DNA of 50,109 nucleotides, from positions 1 to 50,109 of the IMG/VR virus record IMGVR_UViG_3300017782_000029; one strand, 5' to 3'. Made by a program: the position numbers and the translations under genes. The first letter of the stretch is position 1. Each line of letters begins with the position of its first letter. Origin of the DNA: a virus (Duplodnaviria > Caudoviricetes). The notes below the pieces were generated by a model. That model saw only the letters and a list, made by a program, of their open reading frames with translations, ran no database searches and had not been told where the DNA came from. This document shows positions 1,715-34,657 of this stretch, in pieces.

Positions 1715-1994
1715 TAAAAATACACCTAAAAAGATTTTTGATAAATTAGAGTTCAGAGGAACTAAACGATTTAAACAAGCTCCTGAAGAATGTAATTGCT
1801 GTGGTCATACACATATTGTAGGCATAGAATTAATTGGAGCTAAGAAGGGTGTCTTATATTGGGAGTGTAACCGATGTGAAGAAAGATACCTTAAATACAC
1901 AAAAGTTACAACAATGAAGTACTTAAAAATAGCATCCGAGTTATGGATAGATTTAGGAGGTCTAGAAAACATATGCGAAGAACTACCAAATTAG
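1683..1994 (+). CDS. Zinc-ribbon protein
   Basis: CNCC...WECNRC, two CxxC pairs. Confidence 0.65.
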   Translation: MVGIEERHLSNKNTPKKIFDKLEFRGTKRFKQAPEECNCCGHTHIVGIELIGAKKGVLYWECNRCEERYLKYTKVTTMKYLKIASELWIDLGGLENICEELPN

Positions 1995-2764: not shown

Positions 2765-2765
2765 T

Positions 2766-3044
2766 ATGCCTAAAAGAATATTTGAAATTGCAAACTTTGA
2801 TAGAGGGATAATGTCTTCGCCTGAAGATGAATTAGACCTACCTACAAATGCCGCTACTTATAGTCTTAACATAGACCCTTTAACAAGTGGGGAGTTAAGA
2901 GGAGTTCCTAAGAGTAACTATTTAAAAAAGACAGGTTTTACAGCAACAATAGAATTAACTAGTTACAATAGACCTACTACTTATTCTTATCCTTCATCTT
3001 CAGTTGTTACAACAGCTAAACCAGACCAACATCAGCTTAACTAA
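2766..3044 (+). CDS. Tail protein; resembles N-terminal segment of P22 gp10-like nozzle/stabilization proteins
   Basis: FEIANFDRGIMSSPEDELDLPTNAATYSLNIDP...GEL pattern; coupled to next gene. Confidence 0.5.
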   Translation: MPKRIFEIANFDRGIMSSPEDELDLPTNAATYSLNIDPLTSGELRGVPKSNYLKKTGFTATIELTSYNRPTTYSYPSSSVVTTAKPDQHQLN

Positions 3045-19000: not shown

Positions 19001-22000
19001 AAGACGAAAGCATAAGACAACATCTTGATGAATATAATAAATTATATAAAGAAATAAATCCTGTACCAAAAGAAGAAGAAACATTTATAAAAGATGTTTC
19101 TAAAAAAGCTGAAACTACTACTAAAGCAAAATACAAAACTGAAACTGGTGTTGTAGAAAATAAAATTATAGAAGCATCAGACCTTGATGAATCAGGTAGG
19201 TATTTTATGGATTATATTGAGCCTTGGGCTGGAGGTAAAAAAGGTAAAATAAAAGATAAAGATTTATTAAGTACAACGTACAAATTAATGAATCATTTAA
19301 AGCATTACCATAACTTAGACTCAAGAGACTTTAACGGTTTGTTTCGTAGTATGTTCCAAAAAAATATTAATATGGCTACTAAACAAGATTTTGAAAGTCT
19401 TGAAAGGTTCTTTCAGGATATGAGAGATGGTAGTACTTGGACTAGATTTATTAGTTGGGTTAGTGGTAAGAAAGATACTAGACCTGAAATAGAAAGAAGA
19501 TATTGGAATAGATTTCCAGAAGCTAATCAAAGAGAGTGGTTAAAATATCCGGGTATGGTAAAGTGGAAAGCTGATGTTACGCCGTTTAAAGATAGATTTA
19601 ACAATAGTATTATGGGTAGGTCCATAAGACCTACTACCGTTATTGGTGATTTACAAAACTTTGCTTGGAAAGGTGCTGAGTTTTCTTTACAAACAAGTGA
19701 AGAAGAAACTAATAGATTAAGAGATGAGTTGGCTCCTTACACTCAAACAAATGAATTTGGTAATGATTTCCACAAGATTGCAGTTTCTGTAAGAGAAAGA
19801 GGTATGGTTCACGCATTAAAAGAAATTATGGGTGATGACCCCTTACTTATGTCTAAGCAACAAGCTTATATGGATAATTACAACGAAGTTCAGCCTTTGT
19901 ATAAGAAATTAAAAAAGAAAGTATTCCCTATACCATTGAAAGATGGCACTGTTAACTTAACTGGTGAGCAAATAGTAAAGAATATTAACGATATTTACAC
20001 ACGAAAAAACAAAGCTTTAGAGACTATGATTAATGGTGATGCTGATTGGTTTGATAATTTTACTAAGGTTGCTTACGATAGAAATGGTAATCCTACTTGG
20101 AAAGGTTTAGATGCTTTATATAATAAATATTTAAAGTATTCTAAAGAAAAGTTTAGGAGAGGCGAAAGATTTGATATTAATAAGTTTGGTATTAACGGAA
20201 TGCAAGAACTAAACAAGTTAATAAGTTTAAAATTCTCATTACCAATAGCTAAAAGAAATACCAAGCTTTTAAAAGAGTATGCTGGTAAACTTGGTCTTGG
20301 TAAAAAAATTACAGAAGTTTGGGATTCTGAGTATTATTTTCCTCACGTATCTTTTGATAGAAAGAATGTAGATGCACAATTATCTAAATCTCTTGATTCA
20401 ATTTTTGCAAACAGTAAATTATCAAAGAAAGATAAATACCAAGCGGCTAAAAAACTTATCTATCAGTCAAAAACAATGACTGGTGATTGGGCACCAAAAT
20501 CTATTAGTGAAGAAAACTTTGAAGCTATGCAAGACGTTTATCAAAAAGCGGCAGGTGATAAGAAAAGAGAAGGTGCTAAACAAATATTACCTTTAGGTTT
20601 TAAGCAACCATATAGCCAATATCAAAGAGATTCTCATTTAGCTGGATGGTCCCGTGATGCTGAAGCTTATGAAGCTAATATCAAGAACTTGGTAGATTCG
20701 TTTTATAAAGAAAGTATGCTTACTTTGTCTCGGTCTCATATACAAGAGTTTTATAGAAAATTTAGAAAGCAAACCAAAGACAAAGCATTAGCTACTAGAT
20801 GGGCTAATTTTTTAAAGCTTTATACTCAAAGTTCTATGGGTTATCCTACAGATATTCCAGATGCTTTAATAAATGATAAAAAAATGAAATTAAAGTGGAC
20901 TCCTTATATGTCTTTTGCTGATAGTAATATGAGAAATAGGATTGAGTCTATTCGTGATAAGCTTGGTATAACAAGTAAAGCACTAAAGAAATATGATATA
21001 TCTAAAGAAGATGCTAAAGAATTAAACGAGTATAGTCAAAGTAAATTACAATTTTGGAGCGGGTTAGAAGCTAAGTGGCAAATGGCATCACTACTTGCTC
21101 ACCCTAAGTCTGCTATTACTAATTTATTTGGTGGTCAAATACATACTGGAATTAGTGCAGGTGTACAGAACTTAAAAAACGCTAGAGATATTGATTATTT
21201 AAAAACAAATGTCAATCCCGAATGGCGTAGTATGAGAGATGTAGAGAAATGGGTTGAGGGTTTAGGTATTGTTGAAGAGTTTTTATTGTATGAAGCTGGT
21301 ATGAATAAAGAACTTCGTGGTCGTAGAATGGAATCTTTTATTAGAGATTTTTCTAGAAAGTTAAAAGGCAAAGAAGATTTAAAAAATACAGAGCTAACAG
21401 CTTTAATAAAGAAACACAAAATTACAGATAGTATGTGGAATAAAGCATCTTGGTTTATGCGTAGACCTGAAAGAACTCTACGTAGAGACGCTTTTATAGC
21501 ACACTATCTACAAGCTAAAAAGAATTTTGGTGGTGCTATAAGAGATTATGACCACCCTTTTTTAATAGAGATGGGTAGGAGGGGAGTTAAATCTACACAG
21601 TTTTTATACTCTGCTCCTTTTAGACCAATGTGGACTAACAGTGCCTTGGGTAGGGTAATGTCACGTTTCCAGTTGTGGAGTTGGAACTCAGTTCGTTTTA
21701 GAAAAGACTTGTTAAATGAAGCTAGGTTAAGAGGGTTTACACCGGGTACAGCAGAGTATAATCGTGCTAAGCGATTAGTTACTGCTGACCTTATGGTTTA
21801 TGGTTTATCTAGTATGTTTATGTATAGTCTTTTTGATAACGCACTTCCAGCTCCTTGGAATTGGTTTCAAGATACAGCATCAGCTATGTTTGGTGACGAT
21901 GAAGAAAGAGAACGTGCTTTTTTTGGTCACCCTGCTGGACCACTTTCTATAGTCAAGCCTCCTTTGTTTAGATTTGACCAACCTATATACGAAGGATTAG

Positions 22001-22221
22001 TAGAAGGTAATTGGGATAAGATGACCGACTATTATTTATACACACTACTACCGTTTGGTAGAATCATTAAGGATGTTGTAGGACCCGGTGGAGCTATAGA
22101 GAATCCATTCTATGCTGTTGAGAAATTTACAGGTGTACCATATATACAGGGTGGTAATTTTTTACAGGAAGCTAAGAAAGGAGATGCTGATGCTAAAAGT
22201 TTCTTTTCTAATCTACTATAA
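13045..22221 (+). CDS. Giant virion protein / virion-packaged two-barrel (DPBB) RNA polymerase with inserted GNAT domain
   Basis: FDGG (D840), LGKY (K883), ESGIK (K912), MRVP (R1352), GGADLDGD (D1391-D1395); GNAT motifs RNKGIG and NFWKKQGY at aa ~970-1065; last gene of ejection cluster. Confidence 0.8.
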   Translation: MAMQKAPWEPKANKEQTRESVVKYRLQPSLWEGNEKEIENLQKHAEYHRIPFARSKEHQDNMIMGSLKQFASGWGEGFSANIIQGDDEPDTTPEKIARQLGSLAGFLGYIPGSKFIKPLQAIAKFTRNKSIPMRVANKATQTMSKAYPTLKRDAPSIAKIFSSENKIGDVLQGAFHLGIASGVSDWRGIVDEGMPRALEAVGWGGVYGGGFRALGNMPGFGKKLQATQLDASTGLPKLKTLTGGQLFDYSVRAAVSGIVSKELAEYQHNGPLPLEQEIYEYVMGAAFSFNDTPLQTRLSRKAIHDTIKNKYGYEESFGKVPDPELHPEYDTWTPEMQKFVKRDFDAWFGADSEVKAATLMLQNQAMKNEGLTQKDIEKTMDEMVKKNIDSAELNPEGELIDPVLKSDIKKVKDIIKDNPNSEEYQDLDMHINQIDNLPGKISGGKGYVDKYITPRTGKSTMADRLVESLKIAKKWDELHTTVQGIARPKDGAVKEMIDFIQKEYKLNNIEQKEIDWWRNWAEQTRKKRLVLQTFFADGEVGFVDKGVSPTGEKKELLFEPPKMQEIFNNINTKLGKPQENFYTIADFFVRKGEEYGFTGKDVRRLQNALDKTIGPDGKPAKAKNVIRMVKSKIAKDLDQAGYYYTGGRGDKAAMYFVKKHPMVDPANRQKDLDMIQKAFENNGFDKGKFSKHLLKMGIKYKQKFRGVNDNYYKDSLINNIYYDIHNNFGFNVAQKDIPAMLNKMLSSKGFIKDAKAYNKRAQIWFNSGQTTNTRVANEYLKSFKARFKKEYKLPRDWEPLEFVGKKKDEASLVIWDDSVGIDKDNFKADRKNMERPEGFDGGIPALPEFIYALNKSNGITNEGRVNKSFIVSPNAKYGAMLGKYMFFEASPKLQEAMRKKGIHALAPESGIKQMGFRKFGNVNVKGFKGAGDKIERIDFEAQVRKLLNNKGLFINAENAKVGGKKLPQERIGDIYLMPEARNKGIGSKFADLVENYKRSQGLRDIQIMAVGGRKKEGTEKHDNINFWKKQGYKVTGKAVPVKLGNKVLNPELRGKTVYAIPMSKDIQGDIWIEGPKYNIPLRDIRTILSETTSTNDLVGAKFAKQMWSTIMHFSKDKTNPDLIKSMSDEIIKRSVEGDSELNKAWDAHIKNPNDVSERKILEDIDNVSLEKLAEAVTNTKDEGFASRVYDKIIQKNIETTRETAKEAEIVKDEYAKSLVEVSEFEGILDRVGELYPKGNLGFYMHKFAKNYRQNAVKNYIVDRISRPKLKNGMKARMRPFDHGMWGKIDIDDRQDVFYLDDGARAKKIYDPFFNGGYETLGKIWDEYNKKDNGIYKENKELIEDILEGVAMRVPMDSQSGAHALKFGGFTGAKGQGVLLHGRVMDALGGADLDGDKAFIFFGGKSGMWKEWKEIYKGQLNEFVDKDGNQIPAKNEDARKQFVKSDKELIEMNSNPISKYDPNLRATMSEAAYEGRETLGGAVTTRQALASAYDVIRLSESTAYGPVKYVKGQYLPTIIQKGAYYFPVETKQGKVAYVKQTPKKAIERFKQLSRAAINLGADPMDEMGIRSASEIKQILNDSLFNYEFMYHKKVGKLDKERYIFTTASDLNRNTTPLKEMLKKFSQKGLHSNYSQANNVLYGRDFLTGNKYSLGDIQAGVGSIDWVPRESQRNLLNFIATEYKKIPYEDNIFRRLDSEALNQLYSSNRREFTDRPELLKLFDRTSMISRQGPLMRQIISKRLYKLENRVRLANNKSEFWDLFHSKWHPQYDAQVNGQKRGVMGNIPSHLYGKFVSKKANTTVKDRLQYLEYKLNQAEDFLVNDLSDMSSIKHILSVRDAGNVSDEDFKKVNLMVNALKNSSYWVKKSRDELRLDIQKVVEETGDKKTGEGFLKYLGLQKKGGESAKNQTEIDRQILFDKKALKKANLQNLYDSMVLGTFQRTNKKLLEFLDRKPKLKKNEVKFKEMLRKNGQNTSLMRIGFASKNVKDESIRQHLDEYNKLYKEINPVPKEEETFIKDVSKKAETTTKAKYKTETGVVENKIIEASDLDESGRYFMDYIEPWAGGKKGKIKDKDLLSTTYKLMNHLKHYHNLDSRDFNGLFRSMFQKNINMATKQDFESLERFFQDMRDGSTWTRFISWVSGKKDTRPEIERRYWNRFPEANQREWLKYPGMVKWKADVTPFKDRFNNSIMGRSIRPTTVIGDLQNFAWKGAEFSLQTSEEETNRLRDELAPYTQTNEFGNDFHKIAVSVRERGMVHALKEIMGDDPLLMSKQQAYMDNYNEVQPLYKKLKKKVFPIPLKDGTVNLTGEQIVKNINDIYTRKNKALETMINGDADWFDNFTKVAYDRNGNPTWKGLDALYNKYLKYSKEKFRRGERFDINKFGINGMQELNKLISLKFSLPIAKRNTKLLKEYAGKLGLGKKITEVWDSEYYFPHVSFDRKNVDAQLSKSLDSIFANSKLSKKDKYQAAKKLIYQSKTMTGDWAPKSISEENFEAMQDVYQKAAGDKKREGAKQILPLGFKQPYSQYQRDSHLAGWSRDAEAYEANIKNLVDSFYKESMLTLSRSHIQEFYRKFRKQTKDKALATRWANFLKLYTQSSMGYPTDIPDALINDKKMKLKWTPYMSFADSNMRNRIESIRDKLGITSKALKKYDISKEDAKELNEYSQSKLQFWSGLEAKWQMASLLAHPKSAITNLFGGQIHTGISAGVQNLKNARDIDYLKTNVNPEWRSMRDVEKWVEGLGIVEEFLLYEAGMNKELRGRRMESFIRDFSRKLKGKEDLKNTELTALIKKHKITDSMWNKASWFMRRPERTLRRDAFIAHYLQAKKNFGGAIRDYDHPFLIEMGRRGVKSTQFLYSAPFRPMWTNSALGRVMSRFQLWSWNSVRFRKDLLNEARLRGFTPGTAEYNRAKRLVTADLMVYGLSSMFMYSLFDNALPAPWNWFQDTASAMFGDDEERERAFFGHPAGPLSIVKPPLFRFDQPIYEGLVEGNWDKMTDYYLYTLLPFGRIIKDVVGPGGAIENPFYAVEKFTGVPYIQGGNFLQEAKKGDADAKSFFSNLL

Positions 22222-25178: not shown

Positions 25179-25330
25179 TACCTTCGTCCTTCTTTCTCAA
25201 TATGAACTGCTTGTTGAATGTACCATTCTATTTGCTTTTTAACAGAGCGTTTTTCTTTTTCTGCTATTGTTTGCAGAACTGCTTTTTCTTCTGCTGTTAT
25301 TTCAGCTTTTACAATGTGTAGTTTCTTCAT
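25178..25330 (-). CDS. Arc-like ribbon-helix-helix regulator (50 aa, not in ORF track)
   Basis: MKKLHIVKAEITAEEKAVLQTIAEKEKRSVKKQIEWYIQQAV...; beta-strand + A..E.RS...QI pattern; TAATG overlaps at both ends. Confidence 0.75.
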   Translation of the reverse strand: MKKLHIVKAEITAEEKAVLQTIAEKEKRSVKKQIEWYIQQAVHIEKEGRR

Positions 25331-27117
25331 TATACTCTCCTTGGTAGTCTAAATGATGGAGTCCAGTCTAAATCAACTGTAAATAGGTCACCATCACTGT
25401 TTTTAAATAGTTCTACAGTCTTTTCCGAACTATCTTGTTTTCCATTAATACCAATTACTTTACGTGATGCGTTTTCTATAGCACCACTACCTTTACCTGC
25501 GTAAATATCTAGTATTTGGTTTCTGCTGTATTCTCTTGACACCTGAGAGACTTGTATAATGATAATGTCCATATTAACAGCTAAGTTTGATAAGTAGTGA
25601 GATATATATTTAATCTGTTCATACTCGCCTCTTATATGCGGCGGAGTCTCTACTAAATCTATATAATCTACTACTACTAACTTAGGTTGTAGGTCCCTAA
25701 CTTGTTTTTGAATTAAGTCAGGTGATGGACTAATAGTTTGCATAACTACGTGTTCTAGTAAATGACCATACATCTTACCGACATTTTTACTGTCTCTAGA
25801 CACATCTTCTTTACTCATACCACTAGCTATTTGCAAGTTTCTTCTGTGCATATACCAGCCACTTAATTCTAATGATAGAAATAGTGTTGGCAACTGCCAT
25901 TCCTTGTTAATAACGTTCTGATGAAAATCGTAACCTAACGCTATGTTCTGAGCTAATGTTGTTTTATTAGCACCAGTAGGACCAAAGATAGTAACTAACT
26001 CACCCGGATAAATTGTGCAATCCTTATCTTCTAAACCAAACATCTTACTAAGGTCTATTGCTCTTCCAGAAAAGTCTGTTTCTAGTCTTTCTTGTAACTC
26101 GCTTTGCAAACTACTACTAGTTTTTACATCAACTAAGTAGTCTTTATTTTTATAATATACACACTTAGGGCTACATACCGTTTTTAACAAAGCGTCGTTA
26201 CATCCATACTTATAGCCATAGTTATATGTAGATTCTACTTTATCTATTACTATTTGTGGATTTAACTGATTGTTATTCCAGTGTAGCATAGCGGCTTTAG
26301 TTGCGTCACTTGGTATTCCGTGTCTTCTAAAATGTGAAGCTACACGCATTATCGAATGATTTCTACTGCCTTTCTCTGCTCCTCTGTTGTATATTGTTTG
26401 TATGCACGGCACAACATTTGTGTTCTCACTTACCTTACCCATTGCTTTAACTTCAGGTATATCTGTACATATGGTACTTTCCATATTTCCATCACCCCAT
26501 AGTTCTGTACCCATATATGCAGTTCTTCTTGTTTGAGCAAGATGTTGTATATCTGGATAAGTACCATTCATCAGTTCATCTCTACTTATAGGGACTTTAA
26601 ATAACTGACTTTTGATATTAAGCGTATGAGCCATTCTAATGATTGCTGTTCTGCTGTACACACTAGGGTCTAACTTAAAATTAGGAAAAGCTTGTAACAT
26701 TGTTTGTTTAACAACGTATGGAAGCTCATTATCTGCCTTAAAATTAAAGTTATCTCCCGCTAACATTATATGATAGCCCGTCCCACTGAAGAAACATTGA
26801 TAGTTGCCGTCTTTCAGATTATATTCACTCTCACAAAATGCGAGAATGTCTTTAGTCATACTATGTGTATACTCATCTGTGTTATCACCTTTATCAACGT
26901 CTATTGGTATTTCATCTATATGTCTGGTACCCAAGAAACTCTTTACAGTTTTATTCTTTTGTACGAAGTCTAAGCCTTCTTCATCGTATATGTATACGCT
27001 TCTGTAGATTGCTTGAGTTTGACCAGCCTCATAAACAATATCCCACATATCATCATAAGGGACTAAGGTCCCCCTCCTTGAAGGGGAACCTATAGCCATT
27101 TCTACATATCGTGCCAC
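25330..27117 (-). CDS. AEP primase(-polymerase) / PriCT / SF4 (DnaB-like) helicase fusion
   Basis: IDVD, FSGTGYH, D.SVY..IIRM...N.KS (AEP); GSRN (PriCT); Walker A GPTGANKT, VVDYID, SQVSR, GSGAIE (SF4). Confidence 0.9.
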   Translation of the reverse strand: MARYVEMAIGSPSRRGTLVPYDDMWDIVYEAGQTQAIYRSVYIYDEEGLDFVQKNKTVKSFLGTRHIDEIPIDVDKGDNTDEYTHSMTKDILAFCESEYNLKDGNYQCFFSGTGYHIMLAGDNFNFKADNELPYVVKQTMLQAFPNFKLDPSVYSRTAIIRMAHTLNIKSQLFKVPISRDELMNGTYPDIQHLAQTRRTAYMGTELWGDGNMESTICTDIPEVKAMGKVSENTNVVPCIQTIYNRGAEKGSRNHSIMRVASHFRRHGIPSDATKAAMLHWNNNQLNPQIVIDKVESTYNYGYKYGCNDALLKTVCSPKCVYYKNKDYLVDVKTSSSLQSELQERLETDFSGRAIDLSKMFGLEDKDCTIYPGELVTIFGPTGANKTTLAQNIALGYDFHQNVINKEWQLPTLFLSLELSGWYMHRRNLQIASGMSKEDVSRDSKNVGKMYGHLLEHVVMQTISPSPDLIQKQVRDLQPKLVVVDYIDLVETPPHIRGEYEQIKYISHYLSNLAVNMDIIIIQVSQVSREYSRNQILDIYAGKGSGAIENASRKVIGINGKQDSSEKTVELFKNSDGDLFTVDLDWTPSFRLPRRV

Positions 27118-27732
27118 TTAGAAAGAAGTACGACTAGTAGTTCCTGTTACTTGACCATTAACTGGTGTCGCAACAACATTACCCTCTTCTCTAATCAGAT
27201 TCTTGGATTTTAAGAATTGGACAAATGATTCCAACTCTGTTCTTCCTTTCTCTGTATTAGTGGTAATGCGAGGATATACTGTAGTATATGAAGTAGTAGG
27301 GTCCTTCTTTGAAGGCTCCTTATACACATAACAATAGTATTCCCTCTTAGGGTCAATAGGATGTGGTTTAATATGTTCTTCTAGTGACTCAAGCAAATCT
27401 ATTGCTTTACCACTTTCATCGACCATATCACCCTTTACATCTGGACCTCCGTTGAACCCTACAGTATCAGCGAACCGATACCATTTCTTTAATAAAGAAC
27501 AGGTTTTGATGTTACCATCTGCTTCTCTATCATAGGAACCCAAGATTTTCATATCAACTGGATATTGTGAACCTTCTATATCTAACTGTACTCTTAAGAA
27601 TAAGTCAGCCCAATCAAATTGCTCTGTTTGGTCTTCTAGTTCTGTAATTGCACAAGCTTGAAAGCCGAGGTAACTACTTCCTCCTTCACTTCCACTATCT
27701 ATGTCACTTGGTCTGAATGGTGCATTGCTCAT
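27118..27732 (-). CDS. Putative single-stranded DNA-binding protein
   Basis: Between Sak4-like ATPase and primase; beta-rich with flexible tail ending in Phe. Confidence 0.55.
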   Translation of the reverse strand: MSNAPFRPSDIDSGSEGGSSYLGFQACAITELEDQTEQFDWADLFLRVQLDIEGSQYPVDMKILGSYDREADGNIKTCSLLKKWYRFADTVGFNGGPDVKGDMVDESGKAIDLLESLEEHIKPHPIDPKREYYCYVYKEPSKKDPTTSYTTVYPRITTNTEKGRTELESFVQFLKSKNLIREEGNVVATPVNGQVTGTTSRTSF

Positions 27733-28595
27733 TCGCTTTTCTCCTTGTATTTTACTATTTCATTAACAATACTCTCATAATCAAATGGTAGCACTTTCTG
27801 GCTGAGTGGCTTTAATCTACTGCCTACTACACGCTCGTCGTATGCTTCAAATGAAACATAATACTTACCATCGTCTTTATTTGCTGTTGAGTATCCTATA
27901 ACATCAGCTTTAGCCGCTAAGCTATAACCTAGTCCTCTAGGTAGTTCTGGACTTAATTGTGCTTTTCCATCCGTGACTGTTGTAGTCTTTGAATGTGACA
28001 CTAGTATCAGATTACCACCTACTTTCTTGATAAGATTTTGGAACCTTTTGATGATGTCAACGTTCTTCCTTCTGGCTTTACCCCAGTCGGCACCCCATTG
28101 ACCTTCACCCATTGCAGTTATTCCAAGTTCCTGCAATACAGTTTCTTCTACCCACTCGTTTACTTGTCCAAGTGTGTCGATTACTACTGTGTCGTAAGGT
28201 AATTTGTCCCATTCTTTCTCTAGCCATTGATATGCTTCGATTAAAGAATAGACTGGCATAGGTTTTCCCTTATCTTGTCCACTTCTGTAGACAAACCCAC
28301 GCTCTGTTGGTGGAACTATCTCTATTTGAGGTGTTCCACTTTTCGTTACTTGTTTGCCGTCTTTTAAAACTGGACGACTAGGAGCGTTAAGACTCGCTAT
28401 AGTTACAACATTTGCATTATCTACAAATTCTGCACCTAAATCAGTGTCAAGTACTAAGACACCATCTGAACCTGTTTCACTCCAACTGGCACAAGCTGTT
28501 GTTTTACCAGTTTTTGGTTGACCTATGAAAAAATAAGTCAAACCTGAGGGCATACCTTTCCCCCAATCAGTACTAACTTTGCGTACTTCTATCAT
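27729..28595 (-). CDS. Sak4-like AAA (AAA_24) ATPase / ssDNA annealing protein
   Basis: GQPKTGKTT, LDTDLG, VVIDTL, LVSH, ADVIGY. Confidence 0.85.
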   Translation of the reverse strand: MIEVRKVSTDWGKGMPSGLTYFFIGQPKTGKTTACASWSETGSDGVLVLDTDLGAEFVDNANVVTIASLNAPSRPVLKDGKQVTKSGTPQIEIVPPTERGFVYRSGQDKGKPMPVYSLIEAYQWLEKEWDKLPYDTVVIDTLGQVNEWVEETVLQELGITAMGEGQWGADWGKARRKNVDIIKRFQNLIKKVGGNLILVSHSKTTTVTDGKAQLSPELPRGLGYSLAAKADVIGYSTANKDDGKYYVSFEAYDERVVGSRLKPLSQKVLPFDYESIVNEIVKYKEKSE

Positions 28596-29283
28596 ACGTA
28601 TATTCCTCCGTATTTATTCTTGGTATTATTTGGTTCCCATATGTTACTAAATGAGGACTCAAGCAGGTATTAATATAGTCATAATAACTTAAATTACCAA
28701 CAATATTATACACTTGAGATACTATTTGTGCCGCTATGAACTGAGCCGCAAATACAGTATGTTTCATTGAACACGGGGGTTTTGGTACACTATCAGTAGG
28801 AATCCACTCGTCCATATAAGTATGTTCAGGTGTTCTACTGGTTTGTGTACATAATTCTACTGTAGTGGCACCCATACGTCCGTCAATAAAGAAATCCTTG
28901 TTATCAAGTGCAGACCACTTATCAAACAGATTCTTTCTTGATTCCATATCGTCTGTGCATACAATAGTTCTTGGATGTGCATTCTCAAATGGTAGCCATT
29001 TACGCTGATAACCTGTTATAGTTTGTTTGTTATCTGAGTAAAGACTATGCAATGTTCCTGCGGCATCTATTTTACTGCGTCCTACCATATTTGCTGGGTA
29101 TGCTGTACTACTTAGATTGTGTTCAGCGACTGTATCATCGTCCCACACTATTATATCATCCCAGCCCATTATAGTAAGAGCTTGTATTACAAAAGACCCG
29201 ATACCACCAGCACCAACAATACATATATCTGTTAGTGTATCTTGATTAATCAGGTCTTTATTTCTTAAGAATCTCTGGCTCAT
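28573..29283 (-). CDS. ThiF/MoeB-family E1-like ubiquitin-like-protein activating enzyme
   Basis: RFLRN arginine finger, IVGAGGIGS, DDDTVAEHNL, GRSK, CTDD..SR, DGRM, candidate catalytic Cys171 (PPC). Confidence 0.92.
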   Translation of the reverse strand: MSQRFLRNKDLINQDTLTDICIVGAGGIGSFVIQALTIMGWDDIIVWDDDTVAEHNLSSTAYPANMVGRSKIDAAGTLHSLYSDNKQTITGYQRKWLPFENAHPRTIVCTDDMESRKNLFDKWSALDNKDFFIDGRMGATTVELCTQTSRTPEHTYMDEWIPTDSVPKPPCSMKHTVFAAQFIAAQIVSQVYNIVGNLSYYDYINTCLSPHLVTYGNQIIPRINTEEYTYDRSTQS

Positions 29284-29420
29284 TTGTATTCTCCTTTCAA
29301 CCAGTTTGTTAGGAAGTTTGCCATTAAGAGAAAGATAAAAAATCCTACTCCTATTAGCACACAGCTAACTGAGATTAAAAATAAATTAATACTCCATTCC
29401 CATAAGTCTATAAGTATCAT
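29280..29420 (-). CDS. Small single-pass membrane protein (46 aa, not in ORF track)
   Basis: MILIDLWEWSINLFLISVSCVLIGVGFFIFLLMANFLTNWLKGEYK; ATGA overlaps with both neighbours. Confidence 0.75.
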   Translation of the reverse strand: MILIDLWEWSINLFLISVSCVLIGVGFFIFLLMANFLTNWLKGEYK

Positions 29421-29854
29421 ACCTCTAACTCCATAAACTTATCTAACATAGCGTAAGCTTCCTGTTCAGTACCAAACATAGCTTGGTCCTTAATCTTGGT
29501 AGCTTCTTTGTAAATAGCATTGCGTCTTTCTATTATTATACTATTTACTTTTGCACTACTTAGCTTATGTTCTTTTAAATAGTCTTCCCAACCTATTAAT
29601 AAGTCAGATAGATTTATAGAACCTATGTTAGTATTGTCCCAGCCGCCATATCCTGTTTCACCCATTAGCGTCATTTCTACTATTTTCTCTATGTCTTTTC
29701 TGGTTCTAAGCTCTACTTTACCTGCTTTTATTCCTTCCTGACATACTTCTCTGTTTTTTACAGCTTCTGGGTTTTTTAACTCTTCAGCTTTTTGATTAGC
29801 TACTTCATCTATCCTTGTTACAAGGTACTTTTTCTGTGGTATTGTTAGTGACAT
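29417..29854 (-). CDS. Hypothetical helical protein within Ubl operon
   Basis: AGGAG RBS; lies between JAB and E1. Confidence 0.8.
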   Translation of the reverse strand: MSLTIPQKKYLVTRIDEVANQKAEELKNPEAVKNREVCQEGIKAGKVELRTRKDIEKIVEMTLMGETGYGGWDNTNIGSINLSDLLIGWEDYLKEHKLSSAKVNSIIIERRNAIYKEATKIKDQAMFGTEQEAYAMLDKFMELEV

Positions 29855-29871
29855 ATTAGTCTCCTAGTTAT

Positions 29872-29948
29872 GGGGGCTGGTCCGGCTTTCACCTACGCAT
29901 CGTAGGACGCACATAGTCGGTTTTATTACTATTGGCTTCACAGCCCCC
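29872..29948. other. Stem-closed intergenic structured element, unit D
   Basis: GGGGGCTG/CAGCCCCC outer stem; inner CCGGCT/AGTCGG and CCTACG-CAT-CGTAGG helices. Confidence 0.45.
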
Positions 29949-29954
29949 GTGTTT

Positions 29955-30851
29955 TTATTTAATCCAGCCTTGGTCTATATACCAATGTGGCTCTACTGTT
30001 GGGTCGATGTCCCTTACGCTTTTAACAAATTCATCTTCTGTTATTTCATTAGATTCTAATTTGTTATACTGTTCAGCTATTTGTTCATCTACCTTATCCT
30101 GCTCCTTAGACACTTCTACACCAGCTCCTATAATTTTAACTGTGTCCTCTTCTACTGCCGCTATCTTAGTTTCAGGTTCTTTTGGTTCGTGTCCTCCAAA
30201 CATAGTTGCTTGGTTATACCTGTCGTAGTAACTGTTTAGGTTGTAACCCATTCCGTGACCACCCCAAGTTGTTTTCTTTTCTTCTTTCCTTTTCTTCTCT
30301 ATCTTATCTGCTTCGTAACGCCATTCAGGTTCTGATTTCTCTTTAAGTAGATTGCTTACTTCGCCTTCTCTCATTTGAGGAAACCCGTATTGGTCTTTAT
30401 AGCCTACTGCTGTTACGACTTTATCTTTTTCACTGGCTACTACTGTTGAGAAATACAAGCCTTCTTTACTTGATTCCTGATAGATAGCTTCTTTATCTGT
30501 ACCACTAAAGAAAGCACCCATTGTATGGTGACTATGTATTAAGCCCATAAAACATTTGCCTAATTCAGGTTTCTTTTTGTACACTTTTGGAAGTACCTTA
30601 CCCAGCTCTTCACCATCTAACTCTGTAGAAGTGCCATCACCTAGATGAATAGGTATGAAGTGCTCAAGTCTTACTTTAGTTGGAAATCCATCTCCATCTT
30701 TCTTGAGTACCCTATACCACGCAGGTCCTGACCATTCTACATTTTTAAAACGACGCAATAGATAATTGACTTTCTTCATTACTGCTGGTGGCATTAAAAG
30801 TCTGTATTCCATTTCCGTCACCACATCTGTGGACGTTGTTTGATTTTTCAT
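29955..30851 (-). CDS. JAB/JAMM (MPN+) metallo-isopeptidase
   Basis: E39 (EWSG) and H106-S-H108-x7-S116-x2-D119 (HSHHTMGAFFSGTD), exact JAMM motif. Confidence 0.93.
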   Translation of the reverse strand: MKNQTTSTDVVTEMEYRLLMPPAVMKKVNYLLRRFKNVEWSGPAWYRVLKKDGDGFPTKVRLEHFIPIHLGDGTSTELDGEELGKVLPKVYKKKPELGKCFMGLIHSHHTMGAFFSGTDKEAIYQESSKEGLYFSTVVASEKDKVVTAVGYKDQYGFPQMREGEVSNLLKEKSEPEWRYEADKIEKKRKEEKKTTWGGHGMGYNLNSYYDRYNQATMFGGHEPKEPETKIAAVEEDTVKIIGAGVEVSKEQDKVDEQIAEQYNKLESNEITEDEFVKSVRDIDPTVEPHWYIDQGWIK

Positions 30852-32496
30852 TGTCTAACCCTCTTGTTTCTAATCTTAACTGTGTTGAAATGTATCCCTT
30901 AGCTCTTGCATTTAAGAAATGAATCCATTTTATTCTTATGCTATCTTCAGATATATAAGGATATAACGACTCTATCATAAAGTACAACTTATGACCTAAT
31001 TGATATTTAGTACTAAGATACGAATCTCTCGACCCGTCTTCATCGTTCATTGTTTGATACATTGTATCCAGACCATTTGTTATGTTTATGGTATCTTTCA
31101 CACCATACGTTTCATCAAATGTGTATTGTACCAATGGCTCTATCAATGTTTTGTTAGTTGCATTTAAGAAATTTGCAAAACTCCTTATTGCATATAACCA
31201 GCACGATGAATGATTTAGTACATTTATTGACTGTGCACCTCCAAGCGACTCAACGATTCTTTCAAATACATATGTATCATCTAAACCCTCTGTAATTGCT
31301 TGAAAGCCTTCACTACGTTGTATCATATTCTTAACACGACGTATGTTTCTAGCTGTTGGTGTTTCTCTTCCTCTACTAGGATTTCTTAGTACATCTCTCA
31401 TCCTTCTTCGGAAGTTTGATACTGAAGCACCTATTCTAGCATTACCTTCGTAGGTATCCAGTCTCAGTTTATCATCAGTCAATGAGCTTGTAGCATCTTC
31501 ATCATTATTAACAATCGACCAGTCCATAATGGGTCCTGTATTTAATACACGCATCATAGGCATACTAGATGTTACTCTCTCCAGTTTATCTTTAGGAAAG
31601 TGTGCTAGTGTGTCTATCATTGTTTTTAGTTTCCCATCAATCGTGTCTCTTGTTGATTGTTTTAGAAGCTCGTGAACTCTACCGTATACATATAATGACA
31701 GAGATGTAAATCCTTTAGCTTTAAGCTGCTGGAAAACATCAGTTATTAATGTATCATCACGCCATCTTCTGTAGTCAGATGTGTTATTTATCTTTCCTAT
31801 CTCATCCATAATGTGTCTAGTCATTAGAAAGTCTCTAAAACTATCTTGAGTTACATAATTATGCCATTGATTCCAGCTATGATTAATATCCCAGTATGCG
31901 TCATTCCTAGTCCAATTACAACAAAAAGTAAATGCTATACTACATAGTGCACTTAGATTGTTAGTTGATATTGTCTCTGCAAACGCTTGACTGAAATATC
32001 CCATACAAGGTTTATTATCTCCGCTTACGTGTGGGTGTACTGATATGTCACCATTTATAACCTTATGTTTGTTCCAAGGTTCTGACTGTCTATTATAAAA
32101 GAGAGTCATTTTCTCAGCAATAGTTATAAACTTAGCATATTTCTCAGGTCCCATTTCCTCTCTAACGTTTGTTACTATGTATGGTTCTGTATCATTATTA
32201 TGAAACAACAACGACATACTTGGTAAAACATACGCTCTACTACCTTTAAGCTTTGGTCTTCCTAGATTGATTTTAAAAGTAAAGGCACAAGTATCTAGTA
32301 AACCAGTGTTGTGGGTAATAAGAGGTGAATGAAAGTTTAGTACCTTAGCTTGTTCTTGGTACAATGTTACACACTCTCCCATTTCTAATGTGAAGCCCTG
32401 ATTCTTACTATTATTAAAAAACCACAACGGTACTATTTTATCTAGTAGCCGCTGTTCTGCTTTTGTTACTCCAATGAGCTGTTTTTTAGCAATCAT
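30745..32496 (-). CDS. Prokaryotic E2 (UBC-fold) conjugating enzyme with long C-terminal helical extension
   Basis: HPHVSGDNKPCMG (H154...C164) followed by two helices and N..DAY, as in prokaryotic E2 families; between Ubl and JAB. Confidence 0.75.
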   Translation of the reverse strand: MIAKKQLIGVTKAEQRLLDKIVPLWFFNNSKNQGFTLEMGECVTLYQEQAKVLNFHSPLITHNTGLLDTCAFTFKINLGRPKLKGSRAYVLPSMSLLFHNNDTEPYIVTNVREEMGPEKYAKFITIAEKMTLFYNRQSEPWNKHKVINGDISVHPHVSGDNKPCMGYFSQAFAETISTNNLSALCSIAFTFCCNWTRNDAYWDINHSWNQWHNYVTQDSFRDFLMTRHIMDEIGKINNTSDYRRWRDDTLITDVFQQLKAKGFTSLSLYVYGRVHELLKQSTRDTIDGKLKTMIDTLAHFPKDKLERVTSSMPMMRVLNTGPIMDWSIVNNDEDATSSLTDDKLRLDTYEGNARIGASVSNFRRRMRDVLRNPSRGRETPTARNIRRVKNMIQRSEGFQAITEGLDDTYVFERIVESLGGAQSINVLNHSSCWLYAIRSFANFLNATNKTLIEPLVQYTFDETYGVKDTINITNGLDTMYQTMNDEDGSRDSYLSTKYQLGHKLYFMIESLYPYISEDSIRIKWIHFLNARAKGYISTQLRLETRGLDNEKSNNVHRCGDGNGIQTFNATSSNEESQLSIASF

Positions 32497-32514
32497 CTTC
32501 CTATCTCCTATTTT

Positions 32515-32537
32515 AAAGGGGGGCTTTTACACCCCCC
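32515..32537 (-). terminator. Intrinsic terminator-like hairpin after Ubl gene
   Basis: - strand GGGGGG-TGTAAAAG-CCCCCC-TTT. Confidence 0.6.
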
Positions 32538-32556
32538 TGATTAAACAGACTACTGA

Positions 32557-32766
32557 CTACGCACCAGATGTAACCTTACTTGTTGAGAATGCAACGAAAT
32601 CGTTGTCTCTAAGGTTGTAGTTTGGTGATACTGTGTCAGACCCAACAACAATCTTGACATTCTCTAGTGAGAAGTCCTCTGTTTCAGCTATTTCTGCTGG
32701 TGTGTTTGCTGTTACGTTTGTCTTTAGTGGTTTGCTTGGCATTTGTATTGTTATGTTATTAGCCAT
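32557..32766 (-). CDS. Ubiquitin-like (ThiS/MoaD beta-grasp) protein
   Basis: 69 aa from ATG 32766 (AGGAG 9 nt upstream); VKIVVGSDTVSPNYNLRDNDFVAFSTSKVTSG-A matches v.vng...L.dgD.v.....v.GG. Confidence 0.8.
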   Translation of the reverse strand: MANNITIQMPSKPLKTNVTANTPAEIAETEDFSLENVKIVVGSDTVSPNYNLRDNDFVAFSTSKVTSGA

Positions 32767-33004
32767 TATTCGCATCTCCTGCCTGTTTGTTCATCCCCGG
32801 TAAGTCAGGCTTACTATCCGGTTCTTCAAAGCGTTGATTAAATGAGTCGGGTGGTTCTATGTGTTCGCAGTCATCGCATATAATGCCTAGTTCAGAGTTA
32901 TCTGATTCAGATGAACCGTACTCTTCGAACGTAGTGTTACTGGAACGACACTTGGTACACTCATACCCAGCGTAATCTCCGCCTATTATTCCTAATCCTG
33001 CCAT
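32759..33004 (-). CDS. Zinc-ribbon protein
   Basis: CTKC...CDDC; overlaps Ubl start. Confidence 0.75.
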   Translation of the reverse strand: MAGLGIIGGDYAGYECTKCRSSNTTFEEYGSSESDNSELGIICDDCEHIEPPDSFNQRFEEPDSKPDLPGMNKQAGDANNG

Positions 33005-33186
33005 AACCCGTGTTTCATCCTAGAGTTTATCTCTTGGTAGTTGTCGGTTATAGCTTGTTCTCTCCAATACTCTAATTGTTCTTCAGTAGTCATAAGCTTT
33101 TCATTTATGTTATGAAGTACAAAACAGAGCATTATCATAGAGAATACTAATGTTAAAACAGATATGATAAGTAATACATCTAACAT
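32992..33186 (-). CDS. Membrane-anchored small protein
   Basis: N-terminal TM LLIISVLTLVFSMIMLCFVL then short coiled coil. Confidence 0.7.
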   Translation of the reverse strand: MLDVLLIISVLTLVFSMIMLCFVLHNINEKLMTTEEQLEYWREQAITDNYQEINSRMKHGLWQD

Positions 33187-33188
33187 AT

Positions 33189-33371
33189 CTATCTCCCAAA
33201 CTCTGGTTCACCTATACTTGCTAGTTGTGGGTGTACCTTTATGAGTTCTTTATACTCTTTCTCTTTTAACTCGATAGCTTTCTTTAACATAGCTTCCGTG
33301 TTACCTAAGAATGAGTCAACATCTATATTGTGACGCTTAAAGAGTGCGTCAATCTCTGCAAATTTACCCAT
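33189..33371 (-). CDS. Hypothetical protein
   Basis: AAGGAG RBS; in tightly packed operon. Confidence 0.7.
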   Translation of the reverse strand: MGKFAEIDALFKRHNIDVDSFLGNTEAMLKKAIELKEKEYKELIKVHPQLASIGEPEFGR

Positions 33372-33474
33372 TTGCTTTCTCCTTTAGTGTTTGCCATTCT
33401 GCATAGCATATTAAAGCTATTGCTGTTACTATACCTAGTAATCCAGATAGCACAAATTCAGTTATACTTATCAT
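33364..33474 (-). CDS. Small membrane protein (36 aa, not in ORF track)
   Basis: MISITEFVLSGLLGIVTAIALICYAEWQTLKEKANG; overlaps both neighbours. Confidence 0.65.
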   Translation of the reverse strand: MISITEFVLSGLLGIVTAIALICYAEWQTLKEKANG

Positions 33475-33716
33475 TTGTTCCCCCTAACATCACACATAGG
33501 ACATTGTTTCTTCTTACGTTTGTAAGTAGGGAAGTCCTGATATACTATAGTCTTTGGTGCACTACTATACCAGCTAGTCTCCCAACAACTATTACATTTA
33601 GTACAATGATAGATGTCTCTGTCTGCACATCTAGCATCATACTTACTATACTTATGAACCTCTGAGGTTACTCGATTACTATTCTTATTAAAGTACTGTT
33701 CGTGATACCATTTCAT
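33471..33716 (-). CDS. Zinc-finger protein
   Basis: CTKC...CPMC; AAGGAG RBS. Confidence 0.75.
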   Translation of the reverse strand: MKWYHEQYFNKNSNRVTSEVHKYSKYDARCADRDIYHCTKCNSCWETSWYSSAPKTIVYQDFPTYKRKKKQCPMCDVRGNK

Positions 33717-33739
33717 ATTAAACTCCTTATTAAACGGTA

Positions 33740-33824
33740 AAGAACGGATACAGCATAGCTGTTGATTCAGTGTCTTATTGTAGACTGCGGAGTCCTGTAA
33801 TTAAGAGCAACTGTACCCATTCTT
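33740..33824 (-). ncRNA. Candidate structured RNA, unit E
   Basis: - strand AAGAATGGGTACAG...CTGTATCCGTTCTT, 14-bp stem complete only with two G-U pairs on - strand. Confidence 0.45.
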
Positions 33825-33943
33825 GTTATGGGATGCGGAGTCCCTTGGACAATTATCATAGGCTAAATTATGAAGGTTTGTGAGCCTTAGATTAAATGAA
33901 TTAGGGAATGTACGCTTCGCCGATTCCTGCTTGTAGGTGTGAT

Positions 33944-33976
33944 AAAATATAAGGGCGGAATACACCACCCTTATAT
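33944..33976 (-). terminator. Intrinsic terminator after first early gene
   Basis: - strand ATATAAGGGTGG-TGTATT-CCGCCCTTATAT-TTT with G-U pair. Confidence 0.65.
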
Positions 33977-33983
33977 ATTAAGA

Positions 33984-34382
33984 CTACATCTCTACTGCTT
34001 TAGGTCGTAAGAACTTATAGTAGTATTTGATGCAAGGATTACCTGACTGTGTCACTATGGCTTCGCCTTGTGATATATCTTCTGAAGAATTCAGAGGATA
34101 GTCAGTGTCTTCTAAGAACTCTAGGTCACCGAAGAGCTTACTTAGATTTTGAATTGCCTTAGCAGTTAACAGTTCGGGCAAAGCCCCGTCTGTTTCAAAG
34201 TTGTCTTCAGGCTGAAGTACAACTATACTATGTGGTACACGAGCAGTCTCTGACCTACGGTCATAGTACCTGCTTTTGTTATCCACGATGGGTCTCCCAT
34301 CTTCGATGACGACCTTGCCGTCTTCATCACGCTCCCATTCCTGAGCATTATATGCCGAATGAATTGAGTATGTTTTAGCCAT
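33984..34382 (-). CDS. Hypothetical early protein
   Basis: AAAGGA RBS; first ORF of the - strand arm. Confidence 0.8.
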   Translation of the reverse strand: MAKTYSIHSAYNAQEWERDEDGKVVIEDGRPIVDNKSRYYDRRSETARVPHSIVVLQPEDNFETDGALPELLTAKAIQNLSKLFGDLEFLEDTDYPLNSSEDISQGEAIVTQSGNPCIKYYYKFLRPKAVEM

Positions 34383-34657
34383 ATGATTTATCCTTTATGG
34401 TTTAAACCAATAACAGAATTGTTATTGATTATCTAGCAGAGCTAGAGACTAACAGGGGATGTTGACAGGACACCAGCGACCGAGTGAGTAGCGAGGTGGT
34501 TGAGCAACGTGGACAGGGACGGCATTGTTGTGAGGAGGGACGAGTCTCAACAGTGCTGGACCCCCCACGGGGTGAAAACCAAGCGGGTGGGTCAACTAGT
34601 AAAGTGCGTACTCCCATTCTACAGCAATTTTTCAAATAGTTTTTTATTGTTTTTGTA

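Follow-up and report, generated by a model that had tools for sequence, protein, structure and literature searches.

The stretch of DNA analysed here, called the window in what follows, is the IMG/VR virus record IMGVR_UViG_3300017782_000029 in its full length of 50,109 bases. It comes from an uncultured marine phage and has an estimated completeness of 95%. A cluster of genes on its minus strand encodes a 69-residue ubiquitin-like protein (Ubl), a 583-residue protein resembling ubiquitin-conjugating enzymes (E2), a metallopeptidase of the JAB/JAMM type, two further small proteins called X and TM, and a minimal ubiquitin-activating-type enzyme (E1) with a ThiF fold (Table 1). Judged from the sequences and predicted structures of these proteins, the cluster is probably a phage-encoded ubiquitin-like protein-conjugation cascade. 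Such machinery is known so far from cells and from bacterial anti-phage defences, and not as a core module of a phage. A complete system of this kind had been proposed in an earlier note, made by a model from the letters of the DNA, and the open reading frames (ORFs) and motifs named there are all in place, tightly packed on the minus strand.

Proteins of the cluster and their association

When read from its first ATG, the Ubl ORF occupies positions 32557-32775 and encodes 72 amino acids. Because homologues begin at the second methionine, the likely gene is the shorter one given in Table 1. The residues K64-V-T-S-G68 are invariant in all 11 sequences and are followed by A, LSQ, C, S or nothing; Gly68 would be the activated C-terminus of the tag. 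An AlphaFold2 (AF2) model calculated from the 11 sequences has a predicted local distance difference test score (pLDDT) of 89.1 and consists of β-β-α-β-β-β elements. In a Foldseek search of the Protein Data Bank (PDB) its best match is TtuB (5gha_F; E 1.6e-4, template-modelling score 0.71, root-mean-square deviation 2.0), followed by SUMO and ubiquitin, and all ten matches at E<=0.001 are Ubl, SUMO or ubiquitin entries. The small protein ending in KVTSG-A is therefore predicted to be a β-grasp protein, as had been supposed. A profile search of PDB sequences gave non-significant rows for SAMP2 and PF1061, plus an unrelated 'CAP repeat' match. Longer, fused forms of the Ubl were not found, a result that carries little weight.

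The identity of the E2-like protein was derived mainly from structure comparison. Its residues 1-235 were modelled with AF2 from 65 sequences (pLDDT 93.3, predicted template-modelling score 0.90). The chain runs through helices, a β-meander, a helical insert, a loop with the HPH...C motif and four helices. In an exhaustive VIA-align search of 48,161 chains, rows 1-22 are E2 enzymes by title, with 109-136 residues aligned and Z scores of 5.6-4.1, values below 8 being ones that can also reflect a common arrangement. Directly after them come RWD, UEV and FANCL rows, which are relatives of the ubiquitin-conjugating (UBC) fold. A second look, at 998 chains, again placed E2s in rows 1-24 (Z 5.7-4.1, 125-136 residues aligned), and E2 and UEV rows also have the highest probabilities in a Foldseek search of the PDB. 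All 65 aligned sequences share H154, P155, H156, C164 and G166. HPH and Cys164 are ten residues apart, and the HPN and Cys of canonical E2s have the same spacing of about ten residues. The UBC fold is the preferred reading because one fold class fills the top rows, the alignments cover almost all of the 150-residue E2 core, and the HPH and Cys are ten residues apart. The model thus supports the assignment of residues 1-235 as the E2/UBC-fold domain of an E2 family new to curated models, and with it, at modest Z, the E2-like character and the role of Cys164 put forward in the earlier note.

This E2 family has few members: 63 proteins were retrieved when 1.84 billion representatives were searched with its profile, and no bacterial or archaeal relative was found in a pattern-limited scan of one genome from each of 185,579 prokaryote species. 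The family profile aligns HPH..C with HPHVYSNGHICL of the human E2 UBE2W (2a7l), Cys on Cys, at a non-significant E of 2.7. A Foldseek search of BFVD with the domain found one viral protein at 7.3e-4 and a protein of a crAss-like virus at E 0.17.

The two remaining enzymes belong to families that are more readily recognized. The JAB protein contains a full JAMM motif (E39, H106, H108, S116 and D119, in the form E...HxH-x7-S-x2-D) that is invariant in 10 of 10 sequences. Pfam Prok-JAB gives 22.3 bits with the window protein, against a cut-off of 25, and is matched by 10 of 10 homologues at E<=0.01 (best 3.7e-6). With the motif complete, the earlier call of a JAMM peptidase is supported. A profile of the JAB family found no JAMM chain among PDB sequences. 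The E1 matches Pfam ThiF with 45.3 bits (cut-off 28.1, E 7.6e-12) in one stretch, residues 19-148. A profile made from ten homologues matches the PDB chains of the NEDD8 E1 UBA3 (3e-8), ThiF (1.3e-6), MoeB (1.2e-5) and Cap2 (6.8e-5). The protein keeps the nucleotide-binding and Mg residues plus a Cys: the glycine-rich loop is G24AGGIG29, Cys171 lies inside an invariant PCSxKH, and R4, R7, G24, G26, G27, G29, D48, K71, D111, R116 and C171 are invariant in the ten sequences. These features agree with the ThiF/E1 assignment made before. The 'Arg finger' attributed to this protein is borne out at its N-terminus, where RFLRNK keeps two invariant Arg residues, R4 and R7, but not in the NLxRQ element, to which we return below.

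The proteins X and TM are accessory. X has no match in Pfam, NCBIfam, PHROG or PADLOC, and its ESM Atlas scores of 0.75-0.76 lie under the lead level. TM contains a hydrophobic stretch of about 23 residues, as delimited by eye, and is probably a membrane protein; its gene overlaps the one on either side, at the start and at the stop. The gene that precedes the Ubl encodes an 81-residue protein with four cysteines (CxxC...CxxC), and its stop codon overlaps the Ubl ATG in ATGGCTAA. A relative of this gene precedes the Ubl in all 13 loci that include that DNA. The protein has no Pfam match and a weak match to the C-terminal zinc ribbon of RPB9 (E 0.0095), and is a candidate adaptor, E3-like factor or substrate. 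For one class of E2+E1/JAB operons, a table in Iyer et al. (PMC1779556) includes a 'predicted metal binding protein'.

Between the Ubl and E2 genes there is a G6/C6 hairpin with an 8-nucleotide loop. It is followed on its 3' side by TTTAAAA and then by AGGAG, 10 nucleotides before the E2 ATG. The hairpin is absent from the list produced by the terminator scan; from its sequence it is possibly a partial terminator or attenuator that would set the ratio of Ubl to enzyme, giving more tag than enzyme.

The genes of the cluster are found together in other viruses. A scan with the E1 alignment gave 226 viral stretches with an E1 relative, and the best 80 of these 226 were used for counting. Upstream of the E1, all 61 loci with 1.5 kb or more of DNA on that side have a JAMM-motif ORF, all 42 with 3.3 kb or more have an HPH..C ORF, and all 40 with 3.7 kb or more have a small ORF ending in ...SG plus 0-5 residues (a strict pattern detects 36 of these, and inspection added four with variants such as KVTSGSIALA and KTTSGR). 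The association is therefore more than chance. The 15 distinct loci found through the E2 family keep the order zinc-ribbon gene, Ubl, E2, JAB, (X, TM), E1, Sak4, 204-residue protein, primase-helicase. Stops and starts overlap at the zinc-ribbon/Ubl, E2/JAB, X/TM, TM/E1 and E1/Sak4 boundaries, which amounts to translational coupling. The last of these overlaps, recognized in the earlier note, measures 23 nucleotides.

The genes have diverged to different degrees. In the related locus L009 the identity to the window is 89% for Sak4, 80% for the primase-helicase, 58% for the E1, 48% for the JAB, 47% for the Ubl and 27% for the E2. The E2 thus diverges far faster than its neighbours, which fits a component that faces the target. 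Within the E2-like protein the change is concentrated towards the C-terminus. BLASTP aligns the N-terminal domain at 27-49% identity in eight of nine relatives and over only 31 residues in the ninth (L018), whereas the C-terminal approximately 350 residues have no match at E<0.3 in five of the nine (L012-L016), whose Sak4 proteins are 74-77% identical. This would be the expected pattern if the region faced a changing target, and residues 236-573 are therefore a candidate target-recognition part. ESM Atlas scores for the region (0.75-0.76) are under the lead level.

Table 1. Positions of the features discussed in the text (all on the minus strand of the window)
Feature	Positions	Strand	Basis or remark
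81-residue four-Cys (CxxC...CxxC) zinc-ribbon-like protein	32759-33004	minus	ORF
Ubl, 69-residue β-grasp protein ending KVTSG-A	32557-32766	minus	AF2 model, Foldseek, conserved C-terminus
G6/C6 hairpin, 8-nucleotide loop	32518-32537	minus	read from sequence; between Ubl stop and E2 start
E2-like protein, 583 residues	30745-32496	minus	ORF with HPHVSGDNKPC, Cys164
E2-like N-terminal domain, residues 1-235 (predicted UBC fold)	31792-32496	minus	AF2 model, structural matches, invariant motif
HPH...C164 motif	32005-32037	minus	within E2-like N-terminal domain
Hypervariable C-terminal region, residues 236-573	30778-31791	minus	BLASTP among relatives
Conserved extreme C-terminal tail ...EESQLSIASF-COOH of E2-like protein	30748-30777	minus	tail motif count, dual coding
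JAB/JAMM metallopeptidase, 298 residues	29955-30851	minus	E39 at 30735-30737; HSH-x7-S-x2-D at 30495-30536
Accessory protein X, 145 residues	29417-29854	minus	relative in 10/15 loci covering the JAB-E1 interval
Accessory hydrophobic protein TM, 46 residues	29280-29420	minus	ORF; relative in 8/15 loci
Minimal E1, ThiF-type adenylation domain, 236 residues	28573-29283	minus	GAGGIG at 29197-29214; Cys171 at 28771-28773
Sak4-like annealing ATPase	27729-28595	minus	Pfam/PHROG matches; same gene string as the module
204-residue protein	27118-27732	minus	between Sak4-like gene and primase-helicase
Primase-DnaB helicase fusion	25330-27117	minus	Pfam/PHROG matches

Related phage genes and known conjugation systems

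A tblastn search with the E1 found 74 phage records at 25-32% identity, which include crAss-like Bacteroides phages (crAss001, DAC15, PhiCrAssBcn and others) and phages of the Flavobacterium psychrophilum FpV4 group. In cr111_1 (MT774387.1, L001, positions 2770-6645) and FpV4 (KT876724.1, L019, positions 1667-5678) the E1 is the last member of a string of four genes. The preceding three encode a protein of 211 or 289 residues, a protein of about 420 residues and a protein of about 420 residues with a full JAMM motif. Both strings sit among genes for primase/toprim, uracil-DNA glycosylase and nuclease, and all four proteins of one are homologous to those of the other (3e-9 to 2e-39). In GenBank the genes are labelled as thiamine biosynthesis protein, metalloprotease or hypothetical.

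The strings of the crAss001-like phages (Steigviridae) and of FpV4 share with the window the order of the four genes, homologous JAB and E1 proteins and a place in a DNA-metabolism block. BLASTP of the window JAB gives 1.4e-15 with that of cr111_1 and 1.1e-15 with that of FpV4, and the E1 proteins match at 1e-23 or 1e-16. The first two proteins differ from those of the window. The first has an N-terminal segment ending in ...KKIRSG-A or ...KQVKSGG, and then, unlike the window Ubl, a long extension of 120-200 residues that is acidic or rich in Ala and Lys. The second, of about 420 residues, has an H-S-H...C stretch and shows no detectable relation in sequence to the window E2. Because comparison of these proteins with the window Ubl and E2 gave hhalign probabilities of at most 1.1 and no BLASTP match, a Ubl and an E2 can be proposed in these phages from position and motif only.

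Among cellular systems, the closest in composition is Bil. Its proteins BilA-D are the same four parts in the same order, Ubl-E2-JAB-E1, and the joint presence of these four genes, which defines Bil as a gene set, is also found in the window. According to PMC11601596, Bil tags a phage tail protein, has no separate E3 described, its E2 being thought to pick the target, and has in BilD a tandem of an inactive and an active adenylation domain with a mobile Cys domain. The window E1, in contrast, is a single ThiF domain of 236 residues and lacks this tandem architecture. Further differences from Bil are the Ubl, a single ThiS-like β-grasp of 69 residues, and the E2, with its variable extension of 350 residues. 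Bil is a bacterial defence, whereas the window module belongs to a phage and adjoins its replication genes. In its genes and their order the predicted cascade therefore resembles Bil, from which it differs in its E1 and in having an E2 family outside the curated models.

Bub (6E/DUF6527) offers a precedent for the small E1. In Bub, as described in PMC11601596, the E2 is charged by a small E1 that forms homodimers and has no separate catalytic-Cys domain, and a JAB matures the Ubl. BubCD-BubB is also among the weak structural matches of the window E2 domain (row 49, Z 3.4). The Bub proteins are, however, fusions (Ubl-E2 and JAB-E1) with a DUF6527 serine protease and act via oxyesters, whereas the window has a separate gene for each part, DUF6527 was not seen there, and an invariant Cys occupies the position of the E2 nucleophile. 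In type II CBASS the Cap2/Cap3 pair likewise combines E1/E2 chemistry with a JAB partner, and the nucleotide-binding part of the window E1 matches Cap2 chains. Cap2 is an E2-E1 fusion that conjugates the C-terminus of the cyclase itself, and CBASS has no free Ubl; in the window the E1 and E2 are separate and there is no CD-NTase. The PADLOC models for CBASS E1-E2 match residues 3-86 of the window E1 only (about 18-86 for the best-scoring models; best 1.2e-8), and PADLOC finds nothing in the other five proteins of the module.

The pairs ThiS-ThiF, MoaD-MoeB and TtuB-TtuC also consist of a small β-grasp protein with a C-terminal Gly and a minimal adenylating E1. Unlike them, the window module includes an E2-like protein with a conserved Cys, and the genome has no sulfurtransferase matches. 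The NCBIfam equivalogs score far under their cut-offs with the window E1 (ThiF 35.6 vs 159 bits, MoeB 27.1 vs 266 bits). The same is true for PRTRC_ThiF (TIGR03736; 28.9 vs 144.75 bits), so that the E1 does not belong to the PRTRC type as that model defines it. The other module proteins have no NCBIfam match. In phages, the tail-assembly proteins I and K of lambda and T1 have been predicted to be a Ubl and JAB pair (PMC1779556). Like the window, they combine a β-grasp protein ending in Gly with an adjacent JAB peptidase; unlike it, they have neither E1 nor E2, lie in the tail module and have a role in assembly.

As for earlier reports, operons with E1, E2, JAB and Ubl genes on mobile elements have been predicted (PMC1779556), and an Asgard archaeal virus with three E1-like genes is thought to use host ubiquitin systems (bioRxiv 10.1101/2021.07.29.454249). 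A bacterial ISG15-like system is mentioned in bioRxiv 10.1101/2024.10.26.620412. A search of full-text literature, with incomplete coverage and without supplements, returned neither a Ubl-E2-JAB-E1 module of a bacteriophage nor a re-reading of the crAss 'ThiF' gene.

The predicted cascade, its rivals and its target

The module would work as follows. The JAB peptidase would cut off the short end of the Ubl beyond its invariant Gly, one to five residues long and in this phage a single Ala. The 236-residue E1, probably as a homodimer, would adenylate this Gly with ATP and may hold the Ubl on Cys171, from which it would pass to Cys164 in the UBC-fold domain. The 583-residue protein would be a combined E2 and E3, in which the fast-evolving C-terminal region would choose the target and the conserved C-terminal tail would dock the protein to a partner. 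JAB could also remove the tag. The separate chemical steps, the direction of transfer, the dimeric state and the targets are what we infer here. A predicted complex of two E1 chains with the Ubl and the E2 domain scored, with the E2 taken as the partner, 0.18 against a mark of 0.32, which speaks neither for nor against binding. Since the module lies in the string of replication and early genes, its targets are most likely host or phage proteins of genome replication or of early takeover. Host takeover, counter-defence and replisome control, the roles suggested in the earlier note, may each apply.

Several observations weigh against a conjugation cascade. The E2 assignment comes from a predicted model with modest Z scores (4.1-5.7). 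Foldseek finds no match of the E2 domain in the PDB at E<=0.001, the best E2 row being CDC34 with a probability of 0.38. The 583-residue protein has no match in Pfam (E<=0.01), NCBIfam, PHROG or PADLOC, and none of 34 family representatives matches an E2 model (UQ_con, Prok-E2) at E<=0.1. The closest solved match of the Ubl, TtuB, is a sulfur carrier, and the sole Pfam matches of the Ubl itself, seen with four of the 11 sequences at a best E of 0.018, are weak and of the ThiS type. Like ThiF and MoeB, the E1 consists of an adenylation domain and nothing more, and the Arg of NLxRQ is Ser/Thr in it, with HNLSST aligned to SNLNRQ of UBA3. Finally, the host could supply partners for sulfur transfer.

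The likeness of the Ubl to TtuB and ThiS, together with the bare E1, keeps alive a sulfur-carrier pathway, which we nevertheless consider unlikely. The Ubl would here be a carrier of the ThiS, MoaD or TtuB type, adenylated by the E1, and its thiocarboxylate would donate sulfur, for example for the thiolation of a nucleotide of phage DNA or tRNA. The JAB peptidase would serve to mature this carrier or to release an adduct, which is what happens in pathways of the CysO/Mec type. The position of the module among genes of nucleic-acid metabolism agrees with such a pathway, as does the label 'thiamine biosynthesis protein' of the crAss and FpV4 homologues. Three partners expected for sulfur transfer, a PP-loop ATPase (PF01171), a rhodanese (PF00581) and a cysteine desulfurase (PF00266), have no match in the 95%-complete phage genome, nor does any of the three families appear among 31 ORFs scanned against Pfam. 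For the phage's own genes the argument against sulfur transfer in the earlier note is thus sustained. The ThiF and MoeB equivalogs fall far short of their cut-offs, the Ubl ends in SG and not in GG, the usual C-terminus of ThiS and MoaD, and the strictly co-occurring UBC-like protein with its invariant HPH...Cys would have no role in the pathway.

The same conjugation chemistry could also belong to a defence cassette carried by the phage, Bil-like in action, that would exclude competing phages rather than serve replication or takeover by its owner. The agreement with BilA-D in gene set and order (PMC11601596) points this way, and so does the proposal, in Iyer et al. 2006 (PMC1779556), that mobile-element cassettes act as protection or addiction systems; a fast-evolving C-terminal region of the E2 fits an arms race. 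The role fits poorly, however, because in all related loci that were examined the module occupies one and the same place, between early genes and Sak4/primase-helicase, and is not a sporadic island, and because the JAB-E1 homologues lie within a DNA-metabolism block in two other phage lineages. The absence of the E2 family from the 185,579 species genomes, within the reach of the pattern-limited scan, and an E1 without the tandem domains of Bil also speak against it, and the idea seems rather improbable to us. Less credible still is a module that does not conjugate at all, in which the UBC-like domain would be an inert adaptor of the UEV or RWD type, the β-grasp protein would be cleaved by JAB or act like a chaperone, as proposed for lambda I/K, and the E1 would have some other substrate. 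It is true that UEV and RWD domains are among the structural matches (Z 3.5-4.0) and that the Ubl-like domain of crAss-like phages and FpV4 continues into a long fused tail that would have to be cleaved off. An inert adaptor is contradicted, however, by the Cys and the HPH triad, which are invariant in 65 of 65 sequences, unlike in inert UEV domains. Furthermore, the E1 co-occurs in all loci with its catalytic residues kept, and the module lies in the replication block and not among the structural genes at 36.7-50 kb.

Conjugation of a Ubl by the phage thus remains the probable function of the cluster. Recent work has established that bacteria use Ubl conjugation as a weapon against phages (in Bil, type II CBASS and probably Bub), and a complete cascade in a conserved replication module of a phage would reverse the roles, the virus doing the tagging. 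The module would offer a small, tractable system with a 69-residue tag, a 236-residue E1 and an E2 that apparently has its own target-recognition part, and it would add a new E2 family whose sequences escape all curated models. Genes of crAss001-like and Flavobacterium phages that are labelled 'thiamine biosynthesis protein' or 'metalloprotease' would have to be re-read, which can be tested in existing phage-host pairs.

A clue to the partner of the cascade may lie in the extreme C-terminus of the E2-like protein. In the clade of the window the protein ends in QLS(I/L)x(S/T/A)F-COOH, and in other clades Q-x-(D/S/E/Q/N)-(L/I/M)-F occurs near the end. Of 62 family representatives, 33 have one of these motifs in their last 12 residues, compared with 3 of 2395 windows taken from the interior of these proteins, a contrast that is inflated because the pattern was written after the tails had been seen. 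The end of the E2 ORF and the beginning of the JAB ORF share 107 nucleotides (30745-30851) in different frames; in the related loci L004-L018 the overlap is 77-170 nucleotides, with the ORFs taken at their maximal length. The tail shares its bases, one base out of frame, with a conserved N-terminal helix of the JAB protein, K(V/I)(N/S)YLL(R/K)RF, and at least the last ten E2 codons share bases with the conserved JAB residues 25-35. Because the same bases encode this helix, the conservation of the tail could be a by-product of that of the JAB. Sites that are synonymous for JAB are frozen in the overlap, however: among columns with identical residues, the codon is identical too in 4 of 6 inside the overlap and in 6 of 53 elsewhere (one-sided Fisher p 0.0058, a rough test on six related sequences). 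In the E2 frame, these very bases determine the Gln, the last Phe and the stop codon. This speaks against a mere by-product.

The tail resembles the C-terminal motifs by which proteins bind sliding clamps, given in PMC4549789 as QLxLF for the bacterial β clamp and QxxIxxFF for PCNA. Six-frame searches of the genome, with positive controls, found no DNA polymerase of family A or B and no β clamp, and the phage probably replicates with the host polymerase, recruited by its own primase-helicase. The lack of a recognizable phage polymerase or clamp suggests that the E2 may dock on the clamp of the host, which is a lead and not a finding. An extension of this lead, that the E2 is tethered by its tail to the host sliding clamp and tags the clamp or clamp-bound replisome proteins in order to take over the host replisome, a module of this kind then being active in crAss001-like gut phages too, is doubtful at present, although conceivable. 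If true, it would be the counterpart in a bacterial virus of the ubiquitination and SUMOylation of PCNA, in a phage that needs the host replisome because it has no recognizable polymerase or clamp of its own. If the tail does bind a sliding clamp, Ubl tagging would for the first time be connected with a bacterial replisome.

Genomic setting

The module belongs to a block of minus-strand genes that runs from about 34.4 to 22.2 kb and is marked by a switch in GC skew. The block contains genes for a Gam-like protein, an HNH nuclease, the primase-DnaB helicase fusion, the 204-residue protein, the Sak4-like ATPase and the Ubl/E2/JAB/E1 cluster, and the order Sak4, 204-residue protein, primase-helicase next to the module is the same in related loci. 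The structural genes lie on the plus strand and span 36.7-50 kb, with the large terminase, the portal, the major head protein and tail proteins encoded from about 36.7 kb onwards. A lysozyme-type hydrolase is also encoded in the genome. The six-frame searches mentioned above found no tyrosine integrase. The description of the cluster as part of an early or replication block of a phage is in agreement with this arrangement: terminase, portal and head protein are present, no integrase was found, and the cluster adjoins the Sak4, primase-helicase and Gam-like genes. No tRNA genes were found in the record, an Rfam scan of all 50,109 bases gave no match, and scans for promoters and terminators gave counts not above those in shuffled sequence.

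The phage has no close cultured relative. Neither a megablast search with the module nor a tblastn search with the 583-residue protein found a match among 50,697 phage records, and the terminase and the primase-helicase have only distant relatives in cultured phages. A host among the Bacteroidota was considered, the nearest JAB and E1 relatives being in Bacteroidota phages, and was rejected as unsupported. Near-identical DNA (at least 83% of sampled words) occurs in 17 marine or viral metagenome runs, five of which are flagged as a possible source of this DNA.

Contigs from seawater metatranscriptomes (four libraries from three studies) match parts of 25300-34500 at 90-100% identity. They cover parts of the Sak4 and E1 genes, the E2/JAB junction and genes upstream of the Ubl; examples from one run (X19) are 27714-28569, 28860-29058, 30310-30898 and 32745-33485. 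They were not counted as evidence of expression, because they are available as contigs only and carry-over of DNA is possible; stretches without a matching contig carry no meaning either.

Two giant ORFs, 13045-22221 (3058 residues) and 3044-7510 (1488 residues), have no Pfam or PHROG match, and the same is true of three ORFs of 386, 767 and 589 residues that lie between them. Between the divergent early and structural blocks there is a GC-rich intergenic element of about 190 nucleotides (34430-34625) in a genome that has a GC content of 36%. It has no match to an Rfam family. The predicted fold of its plus strand has an energy of -69.1 kcal/mol (z -2.09), and the minus strand has a z of -0.12. 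The element is conserved in related phages, with 92% identity in L007, 75% in L008 and 72-74% in L011, L006 and L013, and is a candidate non-coding RNA or origin-like element.

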